A stretch of DNA of 32,000 bases. Source: Nostoc sp. PCC 7120 = FACHB-418. GTDB lineage: Bacteria; Cyanobacteriota; Cyanobacteriia; Cyanobacteriales; Nostocaceae. The stretch spans positions 5,820,001 through 5,852,000 of the forward strand of contig NC_003272.1 in NCBI RefSeq assembly GCF_000009705.1, in the 5' to 3' direction. This document shows, piece by piece, positions 7,615-29,697 of the stretch. The translations under genes and the position numbers were made by a program. The notes beneath the pieces are model-generated. The model saw only the letters and a list, made by a program, of their open reading frames with translations. It ran no database searches and had not been told where the DNA came from. How positions within the stretch are numbered: position 1 is the first letter of the stretch; each line of letters opens with the position of its first letter.

Positions 7615-10230
7615 ATGTACTTTCGCAGTTGGTTGCAGCCTAGACGGGGTTTAGCGATCGCAGAAGCTTGTGTTATTGGGGTTTTAGCTGCATTATCTGC
7701 GGTATTCCTCAAGGTCTGTTCGGGATTATTAGGTGCATGGCGGGTTCATAGTTCTCATATTTTGCCGGCATGGGTAGTTTTACCAATCATTGGTTTGAGC
7801 TTTGGGTATTTGGCTGGGCTGATGGTGCAAAGATTAGCACCAGAGGCGGCGGGTAGTGGTATTCCACAAGTCAAAGCTACTCTAGCAAATATACCGATGA
7901 AATTGTCTTGGCGAGTAGCAATAGTTAAGCTACTGAGTGCTATTCTGGCTTTGGGTTCAGGGCTGACATTAGGAAGACAAGGGCCGACAGTCCAAGTGGG
8001 GGCAGGTTTAGCGGCGGGGATGAGTCGCTTGGTTCCCACTTCTCCCGACCATCGGCGGCAAATGATTGCGGCTGGTGCGGGTGCAGGTTTGGCGGCTGCT
8101 TTTAATGCCCCTATTGCCGGGGTCTTATTTATTATTGAGGAATTACTTCAAGATTTATCAGGGCTGACTCTGGGAACTGCCATTATCGCTTCATTTATTG
8201 GTGGGGTAGTTTCCCGGCTATTGGGTGGTCGTAGTCTAAATTTAAACATAGAATTACTTTCCTACTCTAGTGGCTTTTCTTTTCCAGAAATTCCCTTCTT
8301 TTTGCTGTTGGGTGTCTTAGCAGGGTTACTGGGTGCATTATTTAATCGCGGGTTGATTTTCAGCCTCCAGTTTTACCGGAATCTGCATATTAGCTTACCT
8401 CTGCGGGTAGCCTTGGCTGGTTTGGTATCGGGGATTGTCGTATCGCTGTTGCCTGAGTCTTTTCGGGATAACGCTGGTTTAAGGGAATATGTAATCACTG
8501 GTGATTTAAACCCATCCTTTGCAGCGATCGCTTTTATTGCTCAGTTTATCCTAACTTTAGTCGCATTTGGTTCTGGCGCACCCGGAGGTTTATTTGCGCC
8601 TAGCCTAATTTTAGGTTCGGCTTTAGGGCATTTGGTGGGCGTATTAGAGTATCAAATCACGGGGGATGGTTCTCCTGTTACCTATGCCTTAGCGGGAATG
8701 GGTGGTTTTTTTAGTGCGGTTTCTAAAGTCCCAATCACCGCTATTGTGATTGTCTTTGAAATGACCACAGACTTTAACCTAGTGTTGCCTTTGATGATAG
8801 TGTCTGTGACGGCTTACTTAGTAGCAGACAAAGTAGTACCTGGTTCACTGTATGAGAAATTATTACTTTTAAATGGCATTACCCTCACTAAACAGATGTC
8901 GGTAGAGGGGATATTAAGCCAAATGACTGCAAAAGATGTGATGCAGCAACGGGTAGAAACTCTAGATGCAGAGATAACTTTAGAAGAAGCCAAGCAAGCC
9001 TTTGCTAGTTCCCACCATCGCGGCTTCCCAGTAGTAGAAGATAACAAATTAGTCGGGATTATTACTCAATCAGATTTAACTAAAAGCCTCAGTCGCAGTC
9101 TAGAGAATAATCCTCACCTCAGGGAAATTATGACAGCCAATCCTATGACAGTCACACCCATACATACCTTGAGTAATGTTTTATATTTATTAGACCGCTA
9201 TCAAATCAGTCGCTTACCAGTTGTAGAAGGGCAAAAACTGATCGGGATTATTACCCGTGCAGATATCATTCGGGTAGAAGCAGACCGTCTCAACTGCGAA
9301 AATCCCAACCCAGGGCCCCAGCCAGAACCATCCTATGTAGTTTACCAAACGCGAAGTCCCAACACAGGCAGAGGTAGAATACTAGTACCAGTCGCCAACC
9401 CAGAAACCGCCGCGACTTTATTAAAAATGGCAGCCGCCATTGCCCGCGATCGCCATTATGAAATAGAGTGTGTACAAGTAATGCTGGTTTCCCGCCACAG
9501 TTCCCCATCGGAAACCACGGTGAGAACCGCCAAAAGTCGCCGTCTTCTGAGACAAGCCGAAGTCTTAGCCAAAAAATGGCGCATTCCCCTACATACCCAA
9601 ATTAGAGTCGCCCATGATCCTGCTCATGCAATTTTAGAAACCATTAAAGACCGACACATAGACTTAATTCTCATGGGATGGAAAGGTAGCACATCCACCC
9701 CAGGCAGGATTTTTGGCAACGTTGTAGATACCATCATCCGCCAAGCCACCTGTGACGTAGTGCTGGTGAAGTTAGGTAGTTCCCCATTCCCAATCCCCAA
9801 TACCCAATACCCAATCTCCAATCCCCAATTCAATCGCTGGCTAGTACCAATGGCTGGTGGCCCCAACGCCAGGATAGCAATTAAACTGTTACCAGCTTTA
9901 GTGACTTTAAGCGATGACCCACAAATTCGGTTGACAAGGGTGTTTAAACCTTGGGAATTTAGACCAGATATGACAGTTTTAGAACAAGCCATTCGTCAAT
10001 TGATGCGTCGCCGCCAACTATCTAGTACTGTAATTGCTGCGCCAGTACAAGCTGATTCAGTAGTCGAAGGTGTGATTAAGCTAGTGGAAACTGAAGGTTA
10101 TGATGTGGTGGTTTTAGGCGCTTCCCGTGAGGGCTTATTACAACAGGCTATTCAAGGTAATATTCCAGAGGCGATCGCTTCTGGTGTCGATAGTACCGTG
10201 ATTTTGGTAAGGGGAGCAATTGAGAGTTGA
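7615..10230 (+). CDS. ClC-family chloride channel/antiporter fused to a CBS pair and two USP domains
   Basis: 871 aa. ClC motifs GSGIPQV, GRQGPTVQ and GAPGGLFAPSL. Two CBS-like segments (GFPVVEDNKLVGIITQSDL, RLPVVEGQKLIGIITRADI). Two universal-stress-like alpha/beta domains (ILVPVANPE..., WLVPMAGGPNA...VVVLGASREG). Confidence 0.9.
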   Translation: MYFRSWLQPRRGLAIAEACVIGVLAALSAVFLKVCSGLLGAWRVHSSHILPAWVVLPIIGLSFGYLAGLMVQRLAPEAAGSGIPQVKATLANIPMKLSWRVAIVKLLSAILALGSGLTLGRQGPTVQVGAGLAAGMSRLVPTSPDHRRQMIAAGAGAGLAAAFNAPIAGVLFIIEELLQDLSGLTLGTAIIASFIGGVVSRLLGGRSLNLNIELLSYSSGFSFPEIPFFLLLGVLAGLLGALFNRGLIFSLQFYRNLHISLPLRVALAGLVSGIVVSLLPESFRDNAGLREYVITGDLNPSFAAIAFIAQFILTLVAFGSGAPGGLFAPSLILGSALGHLVGVLEYQITGDGSPVTYALAGMGGFFSAVSKVPITAIVIVFEMTTDFNLVLPLMIVSVTAYLVADKVVPGSLYEKLLLLNGITLTKQMSVEGILSQMTAKDVMQQRVETLDAEITLEEAKQAFASSHHRGFPVVEDNKLVGIITQSDLTKSLSRSLENNPHLREIMTANPMTVTPIHTLSNVLYLLDRYQISRLPVVEGQKLIGIITRADIIRVEADRLNCENPNPGPQPEPSYVVYQTRSPNTGRGRILVPVANPETAATLLKMAAAIARDRHYEIECVQVMLVSRHSSPSETTVRTAKSRRLLRQAEVLAKKWRIPLHTQIRVAHDPAHAILETIKDRHIDLILMGWKGSTSTPGRIFGNVVDTIIRQATCDVVLVKLGSSPFPIPNTQYPISNPQFNRWLVPMAGGPNARIAIKLLPALVTLSDDPQIRLTRVFKPWEFRPDMTVLEQAIRQLMRRRQLSSTVIAAPVQADSVVEGVIKLVETEGYDVVVLGASREGLLQQAIQGNIPEAIASGVDSTVILVRGAIES
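9781..9829 (+). repeat. Degenerate STRR1-like heptamer array embedded in the ClC coding sequence
   Basis: TCCCCAT TCCCAAT CCCCAAT ACCCAAT ACCCAAT CTCCAAT CCCCAAT, translated in frame as PFPIPNTQYPISNPQ in the linker between the two USP domains. Confidence 0.85.
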
Positions 10231-10252: not shown

Positions 10253-11632
10253 TCACCAATTACCAAACTTTTCTAGCAAACATTCAGCAATGCGCCGTGC
10301 TGCACCTGGTTTACCCATGCGGCGGACTCCGTTTTCTCTGATGATGTGTAGGCTGTCAGGATTGGTGAAAAGCGATCGCACAACTGGAGCCACTTGTGCT
10401 GCTTCTTCGACTAAAATCAGAGATAAGCCTAACAGTCGGCTTTGGGCTTCGGCAAAACCAGGGTTATATTGTGGCCCCTGGCCAGGAATAGCGATCGCAG
10501 GTTTACCTAAACCGATAAACTGTTCTGTAGCTGTACCAGCCATTGCGATCGCTACATCACCCCAATGCAAACATTCGTTATATGATTGTTGAGTCAAAAT
10601 TAAATAAGCATTGCGTTGTTTAAATATCAAAGCATTGCTATCTTGCAGAGGTAGGGGTAAATCTGCGTGGGGTCGCCAACCTTGGGATTGTACAGTTTGG
10701 GCAAGTATATTCAAGTCTAAACCAGAAGCGATCGCCCCTAGAAATACCACGCTGCCAGAACTGGGTAAAAATGTATCGCGTTCTTGAAAACTCCCCATTA
10801 ATGCAGAAACACTAGTCATAATTATTTGCCAATTTTGATAAGCCTCTGGTGGACGAGAACCAGGAAGCAAGGTAATTACCAGTGGTCTGTCCATCTCTTG
10901 ATAGCGAGCATTGGCCATGTAAAATAATTGTGGTGACACTTTTGGTTCTAGACCGTCCATCATAGGATTGCCCACATCAAAAGCGGGAATCGGCCAATTT
11001 TTCAGGGTTTGCGTAGTCAATCCGTCTCTAGGAAACACCGCGCGACAACGGCGACGACTCATCAACCACCGTTCCCACGGATGATAAATTGAACCAGAAA
11101 AGTTTTCCCAACGAGCTGCTTTTGATTTCCTTGGTAATAATCCGACTTCATCCCGCACGTAGTATTCTGATTTCGCCGTTCCCACAAAAGCGTAATTAGC
11201 CCCACTGATAAAGGCAAACAATAAAGGGACAATATCGCCTACCGCGAGAATGGCGTTATTGTTACCTAATTTTTTTTGGGAACTTACCCAACGCCGCACC
11301 GCTTGAATTTGACTCCAAGTAAGCTGCACTAAACCCCCGCGTACATCCCGCGCCAATTGTCGCCCATCCATGTAGATAAAACCACCGGAAGGCATGGTAC
11401 GCACTGCACCAATCAGGGGGATATTTAAATTCTGGTAAGCCAGTCCTTCACCTACCAAAGGTAAAGCATAAATATCTGGTGGATTTGCTTGTTGCAATAA
11501 CGCCTGCAAAATGCGGACAGCTATCACATCTTCCCCATGACCATTACTTAATACCAATAATTGCAACCGAGAAGTTGCCATTGGTGAATTAGAAGCTAGA
11601 GATAAACGGGACACATCACTCATAAGAAACAA
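10253..11632 (-). CDS. Lipid-A-disaccharide synthase-related glycosyltransferase
   Basis: 459-aa ORF. LLVLSNGHGEDVIA near the N-terminus and the GTATEQFIGLGKP motif are typical of the cyanobacterial LpxB-related family. The true start may be the internal ATG at 11581. Confidence 0.7.
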   Translation of the reverse strand: MFLMSDVSRLSLASNSPMATSRLQLLVLSNGHGEDVIAVRILQALLQQANPPDIYALPLVGEGLAYQNLNIPLIGAVRTMPSGGFIYMDGRQLARDVRGGLVQLTWSQIQAVRRWVSSQKKLGNNNAILAVGDIVPLLFAFISGANYAFVGTAKSEYYVRDEVGLLPRKSKAARWENFSGSIYHPWERWLMSRRRCRAVFPRDGLTTQTLKNWPIPAFDVGNPMMDGLEPKVSPQLFYMANARYQEMDRPLVITLLPGSRPPEAYQNWQIIMTSVSALMGSFQERDTFLPSSGSVVFLGAIASGLDLNILAQTVQSQGWRPHADLPLPLQDSNALIFKQRNAYLILTQQSYNECLHWGDVAIAMAGTATEQFIGLGKPAIAIPGQGPQYNPGFAEAQSRLLGLSLILVEEAAQVAPVVRSLFTNPDSLHIIRENGVRRMGKPGAARRIAECLLEKFGNW

Positions 11633-14399: not shown

Positions 14400-15818
14400 T
14401 TATCTCTTCTCTGATTTCCATGTCCCGTGGAAACTGTGGGGGATGACTTTGGGTAATTCTAGTTTGCAGATTGGTTCTTCATGGAGGCGATCGCTATCAT
14501 ATATCCAAACTTGACTACTGTGAGAATTGCCGTCGTACACCACTGTTAACACCCAATTGTCCGCAAGTATGGGTTCGGAAGGATAGCAGTTTTCTCCTGG
14601 GTAGGCTTCGATGAAGGTTTGTGTCTTGTGGTCAAAGCAGGCGATCGTGTTTAATAGTTCTTGGCTGATATCTGTGCCTTGACGGAATCCTGACATATAG
14701 GTATATCGAGATGCTTGACCGACGTTTTGCCGTGGCACATGAGGAAATTCACAATGTCTATCTAACAGTTGTTCAATTGCGGCTACTTTACCAGATTGGG
14801 GATGTAAATTGACCCGTGACAGTGTACTTGGAGCAGGTGTGTGAGTCTGACCAGTAGCTACTTCTTTGAGATATTGGTTAGTTTGAAAATCTTTGTAACG
14901 GGCAATATCCACAATGACTGCACCACTAGCATCTACATAACCGTTAGCAAAATGCCACTGATACCAAGGCTCTGTTTCCCCTCGACTCACTAAAGATAAA
15001 CTTTCACGGTCAATAACTAAAATCTGAGTCCCTAATTCTGGTCGCCACTGCATAGAATCACTATAGTTGCTAGTCCCCAACAATACAGGCAACATATTCA
15101 ACCGCACAGGGGAAATAAAAAATATTAAATACTTTCCTGCTAAAACAAAATCATGTATGAGTGGGAGACCATCTAGGGAGTATGCAGATTTTTGGATAAT
15201 TTTACCTGTAGAGTCACTTTTGTAAACATTCAACTTGGCATTTAACCCCAAGCTAATACCAAAATTAAAAATTTCTTTGGTCTGGGGGTCTTGCTTATAG
15301 TGGGCAGAATAAGTTAATCCATTAGTTAAGCCACCTAAATTATCTTCGCCCCAGGTTTCTAAAGTCTGTAAATCTAAAGCGTAAGGTCTTCCACCTTCCC
15401 ACAATGCCAAAAGTTTATCTGGTAATGCTAGGACTGAAGTATTGGCAGCATTTTTAATTGGTTTGCGCCATTGATTCCAAACGGGGCCTGGTGCAGTCAT
15501 CCCATAGTTGCCGTACAGAAATTTATCGGCGGTGTTTTCCACTTGATAGCCAACAGTCTGTACATAGCGGTAAGTTGCATGAACACCTCCATCGGTAAAA
15601 TTGACAGCCAAAATTGCTCCATCGCCATCAAACCAGTGTCCTGCAAGCATCCCTCCCCGTTCTAACCGTGCAGGTCCGTTGCGGTAGAGTGTACCCCGTA
15701 ATCCTTCAGGGATGTTACCAGAGATAATGGTTAACTGAGTAAGCGGAAATTCTTTTGCTGGTTCAGTTAATGCACTTGCCCAGGCTTTCTTATTTGACCT
15801 TTTATCAACTATCTGCAT
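14400..15818 (-). CDS. Carotenoid/apocarotenoid cleavage oxygenase (RPE65/CCD family)
   Basis: Four iron-ligand His contexts (GHWFDGDG, LIHDF, WHFANG, HSFHGTW) and overall CCD family similarity. I prefer the start MQIVDKR (15818) because the longer ORF would overlap the upstream gene by 59 nt. Confidence 0.9.
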   Translation of the reverse strand: MQIVDKRSNKKAWASALTEPAKEFPLTQLTIISGNIPEGLRGTLYRNGPARLERGGMLAGHWFDGDGAILAVNFTDGGVHATYRYVQTVGYQVENTADKFLYGNYGMTAPGPVWNQWRKPIKNAANTSVLALPDKLLALWEGGRPYALDLQTLETWGEDNLGGLTNGLTYSAHYKQDPQTKEIFNFGISLGLNAKLNVYKSDSTGKIIQKSAYSLDGLPLIHDFVLAGKYLIFFISPVRLNMLPVLLGTSNYSDSMQWRPELGTQILVIDRESLSLVSRGETEPWYQWHFANGYVDASGAVIVDIARYKDFQTNQYLKEVATGQTHTPAPSTLSRVNLHPQSGKVAAIEQLLDRHCEFPHVPRQNVGQASRYTYMSGFRQGTDISQELLNTIACFDHKTQTFIEAYPGENCYPSEPILADNWVLTVVYDGNSHSSQVWIYDSDRLHEEPICKLELPKVIPHSFHGTWKSEKR

Positions 15819-15840
15819 ATAAGTTGCTAACTTAAGAGAT

Positions 15841-17592
15841 TTAATTATCGGCGTTTCTGTATGCAACAACCTGATTCTTTTTTGTTCGCTTGGCCTCAAG
15901 CATTGCCTGATTTGCTCGACTCAATAAATCCTTAACAGTAATCCCAGGCTCTGATATAGCTATGCCAAAAGTTGCGGTGATACTTTCAAGGATCTGATCA
16001 CCATCCTTGAACTGCATTTGAGCAATATCTGCTCTTAGTTGCTCTACTCGCTCAATCAGTGTCTCCATCGTAACATTAGGTATCACAATCACAAATTCGT
16101 CACCACCCCATCTGCAAGGAATGTCAAAAGAGCGAATAGATGTTAAAAGTAGTTTTGCTAATGCCTTGAGAGCAATGTTGGCAGTTAAATGACCATAGCG
16201 AGAGTTGTAAGATTTAAAGTTATCAATATCCAGAAAAACAATGCCAAGAAATTGTCCCAACCGTTCAGCTTCTGCTAGCCTCTGATCTGTTATGGTTTGC
16301 ATATAGCTAGGGTTGAATAGTTGAGTTAACCCGTCCCGCAAATTGTCATGGGTTAGACGTTGTTTCATTAAGAGATTGTTGAGCGCAAAAGCTAAATATC
16401 TAGCAATTATCTCAGCAATTTGTTGTTCTTCTGAGCCGATTTCTTCCAGGGCATGAATGTGTAAAAACCCAACTACTTCAATTTGTCCTAACAATGGAAC
16501 ACACAAATGTGTACCATTAACAGGATGTATTAAATGACTGCACATCAGTCCTGGGTTATGAGGTGATAACAGGTTTAATTTACCTCTCCGTAATGCCCAA
16601 CACTCTGATTGTGAAAATACCTCTTTACTCTTTTTTTCGCTTCCCCAAAAAGTTCTCATCTCAACATAATTCTTGGAATTAGCAATTATGTTGATACAAC
16701 CACTCACGCTAGGAAAAAGCTTAGTAAAAGTTAAAGATACCACTTGATATACTTCATCTTCAGACTCGCAAGTATAGAGCATATTCACCATATCTGACAA
16801 ATATGTAACTTGCTGATTTTTTGCTTCTAATATTAGTGTTTTTTCTTCTAACTGCCGACTCAAATCCGCGATCACTCGTTGCGCTTCTACCGATTCTGTA
16901 ATATCTATGCTAATGCCTCCGATGCGACGCTCTCCCGTAACATGGTCACTAAACGGAAATTTAAAAGATAGCCAGTAATATGGTTTCTCATTACCTGGTG
17001 TCTTGACTTCTTCAATCAACTTCAATGGGCGTAGAGTTTTCAAAACGAGTTGATCATTTACCATTACCAGCCGCCCTTGTTCTGGATCTGGCAAGAATTC
17101 ACTATCTGTTTTACCTAGCCATTCAATTGGCCCCACCAAAAATCTAGACTGGATTTCTTTGTTGTAGTAAAGCACTCTAGATTGCTCATCTTTGATATAA
17201 GCTCCAAATGGGCCTTGATCTAAAAATAGCTGTTGCATCTGCTGGCTGCGCTGAAGCTCGCGGGCATCTCCTTGAAATTTGGCAATCAACTCTACAATTT
17301 GATAAGCGGTTGGCATCAGGCACAATAATGTAGATAAAGAGATAAACGCCATAATATTGAGTATGCCTAAGTGCAGGGAGGACACTGGCATATGCTGCTC
17401 AAAAATCGCCAAAAAGTGATGAAATCCACAAAATAGTACGAATGCGCCTGATAAGAAAAAGGCTAGCCAGAATTTAGAAGGGACAGTTGCTTTAGTTTTG
17501 CCAAATAAAACCGCTATTACTATGGGGATGCCAAAGTATGAAAATGCAGTAATGCCATGAGCGATTATAAAATTCCAGTAGATAATTTTCAT
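15841..17592 (-). CDS. Membrane sensor diguanylate cyclase: ETR1-like TM module - PAS - GAF - GGDEF
   Basis: 583 aa. N-terminal TM region with YFGIP and GAFVLFCGFHH motifs. PAS-like and GAF-like middle segments. C-terminal GGDEF domain (RWGGDEF) with an RSFD I-site 5 residues upstream. Confidence 0.85.
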   Translation of the reverse strand: MKIIYWNFIIAHGITAFSYFGIPIVIAVLFGKTKATVPSKFWLAFFLSGAFVLFCGFHHFLAIFEQHMPVSSLHLGILNIMAFISLSTLLCLMPTAYQIVELIAKFQGDARELQRSQQMQQLFLDQGPFGAYIKDEQSRVLYYNKEIQSRFLVGPIEWLGKTDSEFLPDPEQGRLVMVNDQLVLKTLRPLKLIEEVKTPGNEKPYYWLSFKFPFSDHVTGERRIGGISIDITESVEAQRVIADLSRQLEEKTLILEAKNQQVTYLSDMVNMLYTCESEDEVYQVVSLTFTKLFPSVSGCINIIANSKNYVEMRTFWGSEKKSKEVFSQSECWALRRGKLNLLSPHNPGLMCSHLIHPVNGTHLCVPLLGQIEVVGFLHIHALEEIGSEEQQIAEIIARYLAFALNNLLMKQRLTHDNLRDGLTQLFNPSYMQTITDQRLAEAERLGQFLGIVFLDIDNFKSYNSRYGHLTANIALKALAKLLLTSIRSFDIPCRWGGDEFVIVIPNVTMETLIERVEQLRADIAQMQFKDGDQILESITATFGIAISEPGITVKDLLSRANQAMLEAKRTKKNQVVAYRNADN

Positions 17593-22966: not shown

Positions 22967-25576
22967 TTACCCTTCACTAATCAACTGTAACAAAGCTTCT
23001 GTTGATATCTTGCCACTCATATCAGCACCTTCTAAAAGGCTATCTGCCAAATCTCGCTTGTGGTGATGCAATTCTACAATTTTTTCTTCAATAGTATCCT
23101 TTGCTACTAAGCGATAAATTGTCACCGGGCGTTGTTGCCCAATGCGATGGGCGCGGTCTGAGGCTTGGTCTTCCACGGCGGGATTCCACCAGGGGTCTGT
23201 ATGGATGACATAATCGGCGGCAGTTAAATTGAGTCCTGTACCTCCAGCTTTGAGGCTAATGAGAAAGACATCGCCGTTCCCTGCTTGGAACGCATCCACC
23301 CGTTTTTTGCGCTCGGACACGGAAGTGCTGCCATCTAAGTATTGATAATTAATACCTTGCTTATCCAAGTAATTTCGGATAATGTGCAGATGGTCAACAA
23401 ATTGACTAAACACTAATGCCTTATGACGATTTTCCAGCAGTTCACCTAGTACCTCACCAAAAAGTTGCAACTTGGAACTGGATAATTCAGTGTCAGGCAT
23501 AACGAGGCTGGGATTACAGCAAGCACGACGCAGTTTCATAATCTCAGCTAAAACTTGCAAGTGTTTATTTCCGGCTTCTGCATTACTGTCGCTGAGTTTA
23601 GATATCGCTTGACGACGCAATGCTTCATAGAATGCCTTTTCCTCCCGACTCAACTCCACATGAAGTAAAATTTCGGTGCGGGAAGGTAACTCTTCTAGCA
23701 CCTGATTTTTTGTTCGTCGTAACAGAAATGGTTGAATCAGTTTTTTGAGTTTATTACGTGCTTGTTTATCCTGATATTTTTCAATGGGGATAGCAAAGCG
23801 TTGATTGAAGCTTTCAAAAGAACCCAATAACCCAGGATTAATAAAGCGGAACAAATTCCACAACTCACCTAGATGATTTTCAATGGGAGTCCCAGTAGTC
23901 AGCAACTTAAAATTAGCTTTTAGGTTCATGGCAGCCTGGGAACGTTTAGTGGTCATATTTTTGATTGCCTGGGCTTCATCTAAAACAATGGTTTGCCACT
24001 GTACCCCAGAGAGCATTTGCGCTACTTCTTCTTGCTGCAATAAACCATAACTACATACCAACATATCCAAGGGTTGTAAACCATCCAGTAATTTTTGGCG
24101 GTTAGCACCAGTAAATTGAATAATATTCAAGGTTGGGGCAAACTTCTGGGCTTCACTTACCCAATTCATGCACACAGACGTGGGGGCAATAATGAGGCTT
24201 GGCCCCTCATGGGCGTTTCTCAGGATAACAGCCAAGGCTTGCACCGTCTTACCGAGTCCCATTTGGTCTGCCAAACAAGCGCCTACACCCCAATGAGCTA
24301 GCCGCGCCAGCCAACAGAAGCCATCCATTTGATAGTCACGTAGTTCCGCCCCAAATGTAGATGGTAATTCGGGTTGGAGGTTTTTCATCTCCTGGAGACG
24401 CTGGATATGTGTTTTCCAGTGTTTATCTGTTTTTACCTTACCCACCTCATCGACAAAATCCTCTAACCCTAATGTTGCCAGTGGGTGAAACCGGATACCT
24501 TTACTGTGTTTTTCTGAAAACAACCGCAATTCATCCAAGCGTTTGCGAAAAGCTTGAGTTAAAGCCAGAAATTGACCATCACCAAGGGGAATAAAACGGC
24601 TGGGGGTTTTCTCCAATAGTGCTAGGAGTTGCTGCATATCCAGCACGAGGTCTTGATTCAATTTCAACTCACCAGTAGCCGCAAACCAGTCTTGTTGACG
24701 TTGAATTGATAAATTAAAGTCTTTCAGGTCTGCTTGGTGGCTAACACGCAGTTTTTCGCCTTCTGGCCATGCCATGACTACGCTGCTTCCCAATGCTTGC
24801 AATTCTAGCAGCAATTCTAAACATTCCTCTGGGTCTTCTATCAGCCATTCCCCATCTCGTTCTTCCGTGCGAGTCAAGCTAGGACAGGCGGCTACAGCGT
24901 TTTTGGCTAGTTGCTTCTCTTCCGGCAGATTGCGTCTGGTTTGCAGACGCTTACCGTCAATTTCGGCAATGACAGTCTCACCACCAGCACCAGGACGGTA
25001 GTAGGGGCCTCCTTGGGCAAAGGGGCGGGATAAAAGGGTGACTTTCAAGCCCGTATTGGCAGGTAAGAGGTGAATATGGGGGAGCGTTTGGGCGGGTACT
25101 TCTTCTGCACCTTCTGAGCCGCCACCGATGTCAGAATGCACGGTGACGATGCCTGAGACAGCATTAATGGCTGCCAAAACTTGTTTTTCGGCGATCGCCG
25201 GCACATTTAATTTATTATCTTTACCAAGGATCTCTGTAATCCGTCGATGTTCACTAGTAATTTCAATGACTTTAATACGGGTTGGAGTTTCTTTAATATT
25301 CAGAATATTCTGTGATGGTGGTAACTTGGGAGAAAATTCCAAGGTGAGACGACCAAGTTTTTCTTTTTTGACTAGTAGTTCCGGTTCTCCTTTGACTATT
25401 TCTACACGCACATTGGGGGTATCTTCCCAAAAAACTAACGGGTGTCCAATTAAGGCACAGATGGCTTTTTCGTTGAACATATACTCAACTTTGCCATAAT
25501 AGGAACCATCGCCGTATGTCTCAATACAACTACATACCCGCATATCTTGGGGTGTGATGTAATTAATGTTGATCAT
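22967..25576 (-). CDS. SNF2-family helicase with bacterial SNF2-associated N-terminal region
   Basis: 869 aa. Helicase motifs ADQMGLGKT (I), DEAQAIKN (II), TGTPIEN (III), GGTGLNLTAAD (V) and QASDRAHRIGQ (VI). The N-terminal roughly 400 aa (HPLVFWED..., DWFAATGEL...) resembles the SNF2-helicase-associated domain. Confidence 0.9.
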   Translation of the reverse strand: MININYITPQDMRVCSCIETYGDGSYYGKVEYMFNEKAICALIGHPLVFWEDTPNVRVEIVKGEPELLVKKEKLGRLTLEFSPKLPPSQNILNIKETPTRIKVIEITSEHRRITEILGKDNKLNVPAIAEKQVLAAINAVSGIVTVHSDIGGGSEGAEEVPAQTLPHIHLLPANTGLKVTLLSRPFAQGGPYYRPGAGGETVIAEIDGKRLQTRRNLPEEKQLAKNAVAACPSLTRTEERDGEWLIEDPEECLELLLELQALGSSVVMAWPEGEKLRVSHQADLKDFNLSIQRQQDWFAATGELKLNQDLVLDMQQLLALLEKTPSRFIPLGDGQFLALTQAFRKRLDELRLFSEKHSKGIRFHPLATLGLEDFVDEVGKVKTDKHWKTHIQRLQEMKNLQPELPSTFGAELRDYQMDGFCWLARLAHWGVGACLADQMGLGKTVQALAVILRNAHEGPSLIIAPTSVCMNWVSEAQKFAPTLNIIQFTGANRQKLLDGLQPLDMLVCSYGLLQQEEVAQMLSGVQWQTIVLDEAQAIKNMTTKRSQAAMNLKANFKLLTTGTPIENHLGELWNLFRFINPGLLGSFESFNQRFAIPIEKYQDKQARNKLKKLIQPFLLRRTKNQVLEELPSRTEILLHVELSREEKAFYEALRRQAISKLSDSNAEAGNKHLQVLAEIMKLRRACCNPSLVMPDTELSSSKLQLFGEVLGELLENRHKALVFSQFVDHLHIIRNYLDKQGINYQYLDGSTSVSERKKRVDAFQAGNGDVFLISLKAGGTGLNLTAADYVIHTDPWWNPAVEDQASDRAHRIGQQRPVTIYRLVAKDTIEEKIVELHHHKRDLADSLLEGADMSGKISTEALLQLISEG

Positions 25577-26906
25577 AATTACTACTGGGTTTGAGCCGAG
25601 AGAGGAGTTCTGCCGTTTCCATTGCCAACCAGTGGTGACCGGAGGCGAGCGATCGCCTATATAATGGCTCTAATAAATTCGGTAAGCGTTTTTTGGCACT
25701 ATCCGCATCCATCCAGTAAAGACATAATGAACAAAACAATGTTTGTAAGCTATTTTCTTCTTCCACGGAAGAAATATGCGAACTGACTACAAATTGTTTT
25801 TGGGTAATATCACCAAGGTGAACTTGCAACACCATTTTCAGCCTGGCATAAATAAAATTCAGCCAATGCTCTGATTGACGCGCAATTAAATTGGCATACT
25901 CTTCTGCTTCCCGCAGGCGTTGTGCTGAACCATCTTTTAACAGTGCTAGGATGAAAAATAAGCCGCCTATAGTATTGAAATATATTTGCCGTTTGCCTGT
26001 AGCTTTTTTCAGGGCTTTAAGAGCATCTGTATAATATTTAAGAGCTTGGTCGTTCTCACCCCGCAGAAAACACAACCAACCCCAATAAACAGCAGCGTTA
26101 TTTTGATATTCATCAGATATCTGCTCCAGGCTCTCTTGTGCTTCTTGGCTACAACCCCGTAACAGCAATTGCTCTGTTAAAATCAAGTGCAGATAATCTG
26201 AGCGATGTTCTCCATCTGTAGAGCATTCTGCTTCCAGCAGCATAAAGGCATCTTCGGACGCAGACAATTTTAATGTGGCATTGAGCAGGATACTAGATAT
26301 GCAGCTTTCAAATAATCCTTGCGGTAGGGTATGCAGCCAATCTGCGTCAAATGGATTATTGCATATCTGCTCTAATATCTTTTCTATGGCTAATTTTTCT
26401 TGGCTATAACTGTATTTCTGGTAGTCTTCAATTTGCTTATTAATAAAATCTGGGTCTTTACGGTAAAAACCTATGCGGATTTCTCTGATACACTGGTTTA
26501 AGCTTTGGAACATCCGAGATTCGTTTTGCCAGTGCTTCCGTATGGGTAGCTTTTCCTCAACTGCCATAACTTGGATTTCAAACTGTCCGGTTTGTACAGC
26601 ATGACGAGTTGCAATTTCTGTGAGTAACGGATGACATTCAGGGCCTAACCTACTTTCCTGTACTAATAAGCCTGATTTTACCAATTTATCAATTTGCGAA
26701 CTGAGGGTTTTAGTAACCCAAGGTCTATTATTTTCATCTAACGCGCCTGTTTTACTAAGACAACTGATGAAGGAATTTTTGTCTATGGGTGCATAAATTA
26801 CCGCAAACAATTGGATAATTTTTTGTACGCAAGGGTGTAACTCAAAATATTTCTTAGCAAGTAGTTTTGTTTGTATTTGGGAAGAATTAGATGCAAAATC
26901 AGTCAT
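25563..26906 (-). CDS. Uncharacterised all-helical (TPR-like) protein overlapping the SNF2 gene
   Basis: 447-aa ORF with no recognisable catalytic motif. It has a TPR-like segment (AVYWGWLCFLRGENDQALKYYTDALKALKK). Its stop overlaps the SNF2 start by 14 nt (ATGATCAACATTAA). Confidence 0.6.
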   Translation of the reverse strand: MTDFASNSSQIQTKLLAKKYFELHPCVQKIIQLFAVIYAPIDKNSFISCLSKTGALDENNRPWVTKTLSSQIDKLVKSGLLVQESRLGPECHPLLTEIATRHAVQTGQFEIQVMAVEEKLPIRKHWQNESRMFQSLNQCIREIRIGFYRKDPDFINKQIEDYQKYSYSQEKLAIEKILEQICNNPFDADWLHTLPQGLFESCISSILLNATLKLSASEDAFMLLEAECSTDGEHRSDYLHLILTEQLLLRGCSQEAQESLEQISDEYQNNAAVYWGWLCFLRGENDQALKYYTDALKALKKATGKRQIYFNTIGGLFFILALLKDGSAQRLREAEEYANLIARQSEHWLNFIYARLKMVLQVHLGDITQKQFVVSSHISSVEEENSLQTLFCSLCLYWMDADSAKKRLPNLLEPLYRRSLASGHHWLAMETAELLSRLKPSSNYDQH

Positions 26907-28992: not shown

Positions 28993-29697
28993 TCATTTAA
29001 CTTCTTCATACCAAATACCCACGGTTTCAAAAGAAGCATAGGCAAGCTTGAGAAAATTTACCACTCTCTGTTTGCTGATGATGCCAAATTCTTTATACTC
29101 TCGTGCATCTGCAAACGTTAATCTATGCTGGTCTATTATATTTCTTTCTTTATACGCAAGTTTGGGAAAATCTATAGCCTTAACATTATATTTTTTTACT
29201 ACCTCTTGGATTGTTGCATCTGAGTTTACGTGTTCCCAGTCATCGCATAGGCCGAGATTTTTCACTAATATATGAGGAACTTTGCCACCATAACTATTTA
29301 CAGACTGCTTAAATAGATTGAGACTGTCATACCCCCCTGTTGACACAAACCACTTACAAAAATCTACCCCTTGAGACTCTCCCAGTTCAATTAAATGATT
29401 CTTCTCAATCCATCCCTTAACTGCTCTATGAGATTGTGCTGCAAGATTAGCAATCACCGTTTTATTCATTGCTATCTCAAAGATTTTATCCGCCTTATCT
29501 GCGTGCCTTTCATCCTCTGTAAATACTGCATACTGACATATACTTTTGTATACTCCAGCTACATCTGGATTTGACCTATCGGTTTCTACAGGTACAAATG
29601 GCATATTATTATCCAGACAATACTGAATCATTGTTCTAGCTACTAAAGACTTTCCCACCCCTCCCTTTTCTCCATCTATCAAATGAATTGTTGGCAT
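28993..29697 (-). CDS. TraL-like / ParA-MinD-superfamily P-loop ATPase (orphan)
   Basis: 234 aa. The N-terminus MPTIHLIDGEKGGVGKS (deviant Walker A KGGxGKS) and VETDRSNPD parallel IncP TraL as I recall it (MAKIHMVLQGKGGVGKS ... DTDPVN ... ERLTFDQAL ... RQRLKIV). The C-terminal matches here are HRLTFADAR and KQRVVNFL. Confidence 0.7.
   Translation of the reverse strand: MPTIHLIDGEKGGVGKSLVARTMIQYCLDNNMPFVPVETDRSNPDVAGVYKSICQYAVFTEDERHADKADKIFEIAMNKTVIANLAAQSHRAVKGWIEKNHLIELGESQGVDFCKWFVSTGGYDSLNLFKQSVNSYGGKVPHILVKNLGLCDDWEHVNSDATIQEVVKKYNVKAIDFPKLAYKERNIIDQHRLTFADAREYKEFGIISKQRVVNFLKLAYASFETVGIWYEEVK

Follow-up and report, generated by a model that had tools for sequence, protein, structure and literature searches.

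The window analysed here, 32,000 nucleotides of the Nostoc sp. PCC 7120 chromosome (NC_003272.1, positions 5,820,001 to 5,852,000), carries the gene all4896, whose product is a membrane-bound sensor diguanylate cyclase with an N-terminal three-helix transmembrane module related to the ethylene-binding domain (EBD) of the plant receptor ETR1. Sequence comparison places this module in the ETR1_N family, with similarity far beyond chance, and we class All4896 within that family as a divergent variant and not as an ethylene receptor. The Cys and His residues that correspond to the copper ligands of ETR1 are kept (Cys55 and His59), and the position of the acidic residue Asp25 is taken by His. We lean, by a modest measure, towards the view that All4896 is a metal-centred small-ligand membrane sensor which controls synthesis of cyclic di-guanosine monophosphate (c-di-GMP), and the metal would probably be copper. 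The features of the gene are as follows.

15841 to 17592, minus strand: all4896, an open reading frame (ORF) of 583 amino acids (aa) encoding the membrane-bound sensor diguanylate cyclase (EBD-like transmembrane module, PAS, GAF, GGDEF)
17263 to 17592, minus strand: three-helix transmembrane module, residues 1-110, a divergent, His-type member of the ETR1_N/EBD family (Pfam PF25487, HHalign, AlphaFold2, ratio of non-synonymous to synonymous substitution rates, dN/dS)
17494 to 17589, minus strand: helix I, residues 2-33 (AlphaFold2), bearing H12 (codon 17559-17557), Y19, I22 and P23
17401 to 17478, minus strand: helix II, residues 39-64 (AlphaFold2), the predicted metal-ligand helix, bearing V52, C55 (TGT, 17430-17428), H58 (17421-17419) and H59 (CAC, 17418-17416)
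17389 to 17391, minus strand: codon of Met68, the start in the original GenBank entry for all4896 (BAB76595.1, 516 aa)
17221 to 17382, minus strand: helix III and its continuous linker helix, residues 71-124, running into PAS (AlphaFold2), with L78 (17361-17359) at the position of ETR1 Lys91
16888 to 17223, minus strand: PAS domain, residues 124-235 (Pfam PAS_4, 67.4 bits)
16381 to 16764, minus strand: divergent GAF domain, residues 277-404 (GAF_2, 22.4 bits; Pfam cut-off 28.6)
15871 to 16338, minus strand: GGDEF domain, residues 419-574 (Pfam 129 bits, TIGR00254 129 bits)

Membrane module, reading frame and output of All4896

The family assignment draws on profile, pairwise and structural comparisons. 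Within the whole protein, the Pfam profile ETR1_N (PF25487) matches residues 6-101 with 42.7 bits (E 6.9e-11; gathering cut-off 27), and precomputed matches to the same profile are recorded for most orthologues. The first-pass annotation of this stretch, which had aligned the N-terminus with ETR1, proposed a profile search of residues 1-120 as a check; scanned alone, these residues match the family above its cut-off, at 46.9 bits (E 3.4e-12). In the Pfam scan no rival transmembrane family came near its cut-off, the runners-up, EbsA and DUF6713, falling far below theirs. When a profile of the Nostocaceae orthologues was compared in HHalign with one of Asp-type bacterial EBDs, the two aligned across all three helices in 102 columns, at a probability of 99.0% and E 6.3e-18. 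Against the N-terminus of ETR1, BLASTP returned E 3e-7 at 27% pairwise identity. The ETR1 sequence used for this search and for residue mapping has a numbering that matches every published residue number. The family alignment and HHalign each confirmed the column assignments independently, and the helix alignments are gap-free and anchored on invariant family residues.

In an exhaustive phmmer search, residues 1-120 were compared with 1.84 billion cluster representatives, and 160 relatives were recovered at E <= 1e-3. Since a single match, from the protein's own orthologue group, was better than 1e-30, with the next best at 4e-10 and 31-37% identity, the All4896 clade constitutes an isolated, divergent branch. 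The family alignment comprises the query and 155 sequences, namely the best 150 of the 160 phmmer matches, ETR1 and four close homologues from Nostoc. Across it, Y19, I22, F51, C55 and H59 are invariant (155/155) and P23 occurs in 148/155, while position 52 is Ile in 141/155 and Val in 13/155. Tyr32, Ile35, Pro36, Cys65 and His69 of ETR1 thus have identical counterparts in Y19, I22, P23, C55 and H59, and Ile62 corresponds to V52, which is Val or Ile among orthologues. Conservation within the 120 orthologue clusters is near-complete at the Cys and His positions of interest: H12 (120/120), C55 (119/120), H58 (117/120) and H59 (120/120). The particulars on which the first-pass annotation built its alignment have held up: the 583-aa ORF lies on the minus strand at 15841-17592, the strings 'SYFGIPIVIAVLF' and 'SGAFVLFCGFHHF' that it quoted are present in the N-terminal sequence, residues 1-110 occupy 17263-17592, the codons it named for C55 and H59 are right by translation, and its pairing of ETR1 Y32, I35, P36, I62, C65 and H69 with Y19, I22, P23, V52, C55 and H59 is reproduced in the alignments.

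AlphaFold2 modelling of residues 1-125 from a 55-sequence alignment (mean predicted local distance difference test score, pLDDT, 91.9) places helices at residues 2-33, 39-64 and 71-124, in agreement with the three transmembrane helices predicted at the outset. The Lys-rich loop at residues 31-40 would lie on the inside, consistent with an N-out/C-in topology like that of ETR1. The full-length model was poor (pLDDT 67, shallow alignment), and its secondary-structure pattern alone was used. A sequence search of the PDB with the whole protein matched the GGDEF and PAS parts only, with none on the transmembrane module, and a Foldseek search of the PDB with the transmembrane model produced no match at E < 1, such that no solved structure resembles it. 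A word-index protein search with the 120-aa module yielded only 4 close fragments, and a profile search only short fragments.

The reading frame merits attention because BAB76595.1 begins at Met68, and therefore lacks helices I and II, including Cys55 and His59. The window protein is identical to a protein of the Nostoc sp. PCC 7120 chromosome, which is also present in related strains, and BAB76595.1, labelled "all4896 [Nostoc sp. PCC 7120]", falls in the same 90%-identity cluster and corresponds to residues 68-583 of the window ORF. In a second shortened entry, RUR83275.1 (491 aa), the start is placed at Met93. The upstream ATG is the start in all 26 orthologue genes compared (loci L004-L029; species-level genomes of Nostoc, Anabaena and Trichormus, 72-92% identical to the window protein), an in-frame TGA lies two codons 5' of the ATG at 17592, and dN/dS, calculated for these 26 genes and the window gene (n=27), is 0.19 for codons 1-67 and 0.16 for the GGDEF domain. 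Codons 1-67 are under purifying selection, which is strong across the whole three-helix module (dN/dS 0.19-0.27 for residues 1-110). The shared ATG, the upstream TGA and the low dN/dS of codons 1-67 together identify the 583-aa reading as the real one. Incidentally, two contigs binned as "uncultured Acetobacteraceae bacterium" (L022 and L030; CAZZZY010000213.1 and CAZZZY010000093.1) carry a Nostoc-type orthologue at 74% identity, and are probably mis-binned cyanobiont contigs.

The cytoplasmic portion was annotated initially as PAS-GAF-GGDEF with an intact GGDEF motif and an RxxD inhibitory site (I-site). The PAS and GGDEF domains score above their cut-offs; the GAF domain falls below the Pfam cut-off in the window protein, and exceeds it in the orthologues P0005 and P0007. 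The Pfam scan gave weak generic GAF matches only, with no sign of a bilin-binding or cyanobacteriochrome-type GAF, and residues 248-420, a span that includes the GAF, have no relative in the PDB. Both catalytic landmarks were located: the GGDEF motif is intact at residues 496-500 (16107-16093), and the I-site reads RSFD at residues 487-490 (16134-16123), five residues upstream. Among the 120 orthologue clusters the motif is conserved as GG[E/D]EF, with R487 in 119 and D490 in all 120. All4896 is listed among the eight genes of PCC 7120 that encode diguanylate cyclases only, in passages of PMC13075795 and of a 2026 bioRxiv preprint.

Departures from canonical ethylene-binding domains

The column of ETR1 Asp25 is occupied by His12 in both the family alignment and the HHalign comparison, bearing out the assignment made from the sequence at first sight. 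By its sequence, All4896 accordingly departs at Asp25 from the seven-residue criterion for ethylene binding (Wang 2006), as applied in PMC6682694 and PMC11819568. Among the 1,221 EBDs surveyed by Azhar et al. (2023; PMC10266040), this column is reported as Asp in 93.55% and Asn in 3.67%, the latter mostly cyanobacterial, and the relevant sections of that paper contain no discussion of His there. The AlphaFold-Multimer model of ETR1 described in the same work puts Asp25 at 2.8 A from His69 and 3.3 A from Lys91, and Thr68 at 2.7 A from the copper. Both of these neighbouring positions have also changed in All4896. Lys91, the proposed polar-bridge partner of Asp25 with a role in signal output, is Lys in 115/156 aligned sequences and Leu78 here, and the Thr68 column carries His58. 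H74 and M81 are additional polar residues whose conservation is specific to the All4896 clade, and H67 is found in most orthologues.

The N-terminus differs too. Canonical bacterial EBDs possess a segment of approximately 20 residues with a conserved F-x-P-H-G-x-C-x-x-W motif, which stands just before helix I (as F-[MIV]-P-H-G-[HMF]-C-[YF]-[LQ]-W in the relatives P0160-P0206), its Cys being present in 44/44 extended relatives. All4896 starts five residues before the conserved Trp, with the stop codon two codons upstream, and lacks the PHGxC segment. We know of no discussion of this motif, a second His/Cys element of bacterial EBDs. PF25487 scores range from 33-47 bits in the All4896 clade, against 104-118 in canonical bacterial EBDs. 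The first-pass annotation had cautioned that His at the Asp25 position could mean altered metal or ligand chemistry; with Lys91 replaced by Leu78, Thr68 by His58, and the N-terminal Cys segment absent, that caution appears well founded and even understated.

Patterns across the wider family are suggestive only, as the sample is biased towards the query and the statistics ignore kinship. Of the 155 relatives, 111 combine Asp and Lys at the Asp25 and Lys91 columns and 37 have neither, while four retain Asp without Lys and three Lys without Asp (Fisher p ~1e-27), which suggests that Asp25 and Lys91 tend to be lost together. In all 18 His-type sequences Lys is absent from the Lys91 column, and several Asn-type sequences have Asp or Glu there; at position 79, immediately after this column, most All4896 orthologues have Asp and PCC 7120 has Asn. 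The polar pair may, judging from these substitutions, have been rebuilt in other forms. In a neighbour-joining tree the His-type domains fall into nine separate clades, some of which adjoin Asn-type sequences, and this suggests recurrent change at the Asp25 position. Output domains differ in parallel: among relatives with a recognisable output domain, GGDEF and histidine-kinase outputs number 8 and 1, respectively, for His-type domains, 5 and 5 for Asn-type domains, and 7 and 68 for Asp-type domains. These counts suggest that non-Asp domains are mostly joined to GGDEF outputs, and Asp-type domains mostly to histidine kinases.

Comparison with characterized systems places All4896 in context. 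SynEtr1 of Synechocystis PCC 6803 (Slr1212/UirS/PixA) is likewise a cyanobacterial protein in which an N-terminal ETR1-type domain with three transmembrane helices precedes PAS/GAF-type domains, and its EBD binds 14C-ethylene (PMC6682694). SynEtr1 retains all seven binding residues (PMC6682694), and it carries a cyanobacteriochrome GAF and a histidine-kinase output. In All4896, by contrast, Asp25 is replaced by His and Lys91 by Leu, the N-terminal Cys segment is missing, the GAF is without a cyanobacteriochrome or PDB match, and the output is GGDEF. The founding member of the Pfam family to which All4896 belongs, Arabidopsis ETR1, resembles All4896 in its three transmembrane helices, with Cys65 and His69 on helix II and Tyr32, Ile35 and Pro36 on helix I. 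It differs in having a bridge between Asp25 and Lys91, Thr at position 68, disulfides of Cys4 and Cys6 at the N-terminus, and a GAF-histidine kinase-receiver output, and is described as releasing ethylene very slowly (PMC10266040). A parallel at the Asp25 position is offered by the Asn25-type EBDs, which also carry a natural non-acidic residue there and for which fast ligand release is proposed in that paper; in our family sample they too lack Lys91 and often have GGDEF outputs. The His of All4896, unlike Asn, is a potential metal ligand or hydrogen-bond partner, and the Thr68 column of this clade likewise holds His. A further bacterial EBD protein, AzoEtr1 of Azospirillum brasilense, binds 14C-ethylene through its EBD and affects biofilm formation (PMC11819568), but it keeps all seven residues and acts through a histidine kinase and cognate response regulator, and not as a direct c-di-GMP synthase.

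Candidate sensing mechanism and competing explanations

In the mechanism that we propose, All4896 would be a homodimeric, membrane-anchored sensor diguanylate cyclase whose Cys55 and His59 would bind a metal within the membrane, most likely Cu(I). By reference to the ETR1 model, His12 would sit where Asp25 polarises His69, and His58 where Thr68 adjoins the copper. Together, these two residues would render the site more histidine-rich, without the Asp25-Lys91 polar bridge, and either coordination or hydrogen-bonding may be altered. Binding of a small, membrane-permeant ligand would then reposition helix III. The ligand may be ethylene, bound with lower affinity or let go faster than by plant receptors, in analogy to the Asn variants. 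Alternatively, a different small molecule, unsaturated or gaseous, may be detected, or the site may respond to metal or redox state as such. As helix III is predicted to run on as one long helix into PAS, the change could pass via GAF to the GGDEF pair and alter the synthesis of c-di-GMP, which would itself feed back at the I-site.

Several considerations weigh against this proposal. The departure from the seven-residue criterion and the missing PHGxC segment, described above, are two of these. Mutagenesis of ETR1 supplies others: D25A, D25N and D25Q are reported to lack detectable saturable ethylene binding, and copper binding in vitro to be nearly abolished in all four Asp25 mutants (A, N, E and Q), among which His is not represented (PMC10266040). 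Further, four possible ligands (C55, H59, H12 and H58) would favour higher coordination numbers, which, in an argument made in PMC10266040, disfavour Cu(I) and ligand access, a four-ligand site favouring divalent metals instead. Finally, a single all4896 deletion is reported to have no heterocyst-frequency phenotype (PMC8682488).

Other readings of the module distribute this evidence differently. That All4896 might be a high-affinity ethylene receptor of the canonical kind, as SynEtr1 and ETR1 are, wired to c-di-GMP rather than to a histidine kinase, would accord with the identity of five of the seven essential residues, the conservative change of I62 to Val, and the invariant Cys and His copper ligands, and also with the habit of Nostoc species, which are often plant or lichen symbionts, many of the orthologues coming from lichen (Peltigera) cyanobionts. 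We nevertheless regard it as improbable given Asp25 to His and Lys91 to Leu, the loss of detectable binding in the ETR1 mutants named above together with an off-rate increased at least 100-fold in D25N (PMC10266040), and the low Pfam scores relative to canonical bacterial EBDs. The further conserved membrane His and Met residues (H12, H58, H74 and M81, plus H67 in most orthologues) would find an explanation if a His/Cys/Met-rich transmembrane site reports the availability of copper or another metal, or an oxidation state, and not a gas. The preference of a four-ligand site for divalent metals would fit such a role, as would regulation by FurA, for all4896 is reported to have a predicted FurA box, a 5.1-fold drop in expression in a conditional furA mutant, and a promoter bound by FurA in an electrophoretic mobility shift assay (PMC12282138). 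However, no family member is known to act in this way, copper or metal homeostasis genes are not conserved beside all4896, and FurA is a very broad regulator, so that we consider a metal or redox sensor rather unlikely, though less so than a canonical receptor.

It is also conceivable that the EBD has degenerated into a membrane anchor and dimerisation device, leaving sensing to the cytoplasmic PAS and GAF domains. Loss of the Asp25/Lys91 pair and of the N-terminal motif, the presence of PAS and GAF, and the position of the clade as the most divergent of the family, with one representative only below E 1e-10, would all fit that scenario. A plain anchor, though, needs no conserved buried H12, C55 and H59, and these polar residues are invariant or nearly so in the 120 orthologue clusters, in a module with dN/dS as low as that of the catalytic domain; we judge this scenario distinctly unlikely, on a par with the canonical receptor. 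As for a chance CGxxH motif in an unrelated transmembrane sensor family, which the pairwise identity to ETR1 of just 27% might have prompted, its probability is negligible: the Pfam score lies above the curated threshold, the HHalign probability is 99% across 102 columns, and no other family is near its cut-off. The Pfam ETR1_N score and HHalign refute this rival, and because EbsA and DUF6713 lie far below their cut-offs it was removed from consideration. Weighed against each of these readings, a metal-centred small-ligand sensor is the account that we continue to favour. More broadly, His-type EBDs could form a distinct functional class of intramembrane metal-centre sensors that detect a different small ligand or a metal/redox state, as opposed to plant-like ethylene sensing, and that are preferentially wired to c-di-GMP synthesis. 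This class would be marked by Asp25 to His and the loss of Lys91 and, in the Nostoc clade, also by Thr68 to His and the absent PHGxC segment; we advance it tentatively, as a possibility with rather less than an even chance of being right.

Genomic neighbourhood and significance

Two neighbours of all4896 on the same strand are relevant to its biology.

14400 to 15818, minus strand: RPE65-family carotenoid cleavage oxygenase, 472 aa, 22 nucleotides after the all4896 stop codon
18199 to 20664, minus strand: CHASE3-PAS-GGDEF-EAL protein (Pfam), the tandem upstream neighbour and a second c-di-GMP enzyme gene

No terminator-like site was found between all4896 and the RPE65-family gene, and scans for promoters and terminators were otherwise uninformative; the two genes are possibly co-transcribed. 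In the mechanical ORF list the RPE65-family ORF extends over 14400-15899 from a TTG, overlapping the 3' end of all4896; the called gene starts at the ATG at 15818. The upstream gene is a candidate for all4897, which it fits in position and domains; all4897 is described as a phosphodiesterase gene, the deletion of which, as the seventh such gene, led to a sharp rise in c-di-GMP (PMC13075795). The arrangement of CHASE3-GGDEF-EAL, all4896 and RPE65 genes is common only to PCC 7120 and Nostoc parmelioides. At the orthologous locus of other Nostoc genomes, the flanking genes are housekeeping genes, with cobW, dtd, psb28 and MoCF genes upstream and a glycosyltransferase gene downstream, and no conserved partner gene was found beside all4896 or its orthologues in the Nostoc genomes compared. 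The RPE65-family neighbour had raised the idea of a sensor of apocarotenoid volatiles, which was dropped because the adjacency is shared only with the closest relative.

Elsewhere in the window, the plus strand encodes at 7615-10230 an 871-aa protein that combines a voltage-gated CLC chloride channel with two CBS domains and a universal stress protein domain. For three sizeable minus-strand ORFs, at 10253-11632, 25563-26906 and 28993-29697 (459, 447 and 234 aa), Pfam gave no match at E <= 1e-5, and an Rfam scan of the window found nothing.

The recognition of an ethylene-receptor-type module gives a testable input to all4896, which is a named gene in one of the major model cyanobacteria. The passages on all4896 that we found in the literature treat it merely as a "PAS/PAC diguanylate cyclase", and the first GenBank entry for the gene had omitted two of the three helices of the sensor. 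The passages concerned in PMC8682488, PMC13075795, PMC12282138 and the 2026 bioRxiv preprint make no mention of an EBD, and those in the first two papers and the preprint include no enzyme assay for All4896; a term search likewise showed that the word "ethylene" is absent from PMC8682488 and PMC13075795. A 2022 census of sensory inputs to c-di-GMP contains no occurrence of "ethylene" or "copper", and we found no experimental study of an EBD-type domain coupled directly to c-di-GMP, consistent with the initial remark that fusions of EBDs to GGDEF outputs are essentially uncharacterised.

If His-type domains do constitute a distinct class, then All4896 would be its first genetically tractable example, in an organism in which every other c-di-GMP enzyme gene is already deletable. 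As Anabaena PCC 7120 strains that lack every other diguanylate cyclase exist, the output of All4896 should be readable cleanly. The natural replacement of Asp by His also bears on the way in which Asp25 adjusts the binding of copper and ethylene by ETR1. It is invariant in the All4896 clade, goes together with the loss of Lys91, and has recurred within the family. This pattern suggests that the type of output and the kinetics of ligand release evolve jointly.

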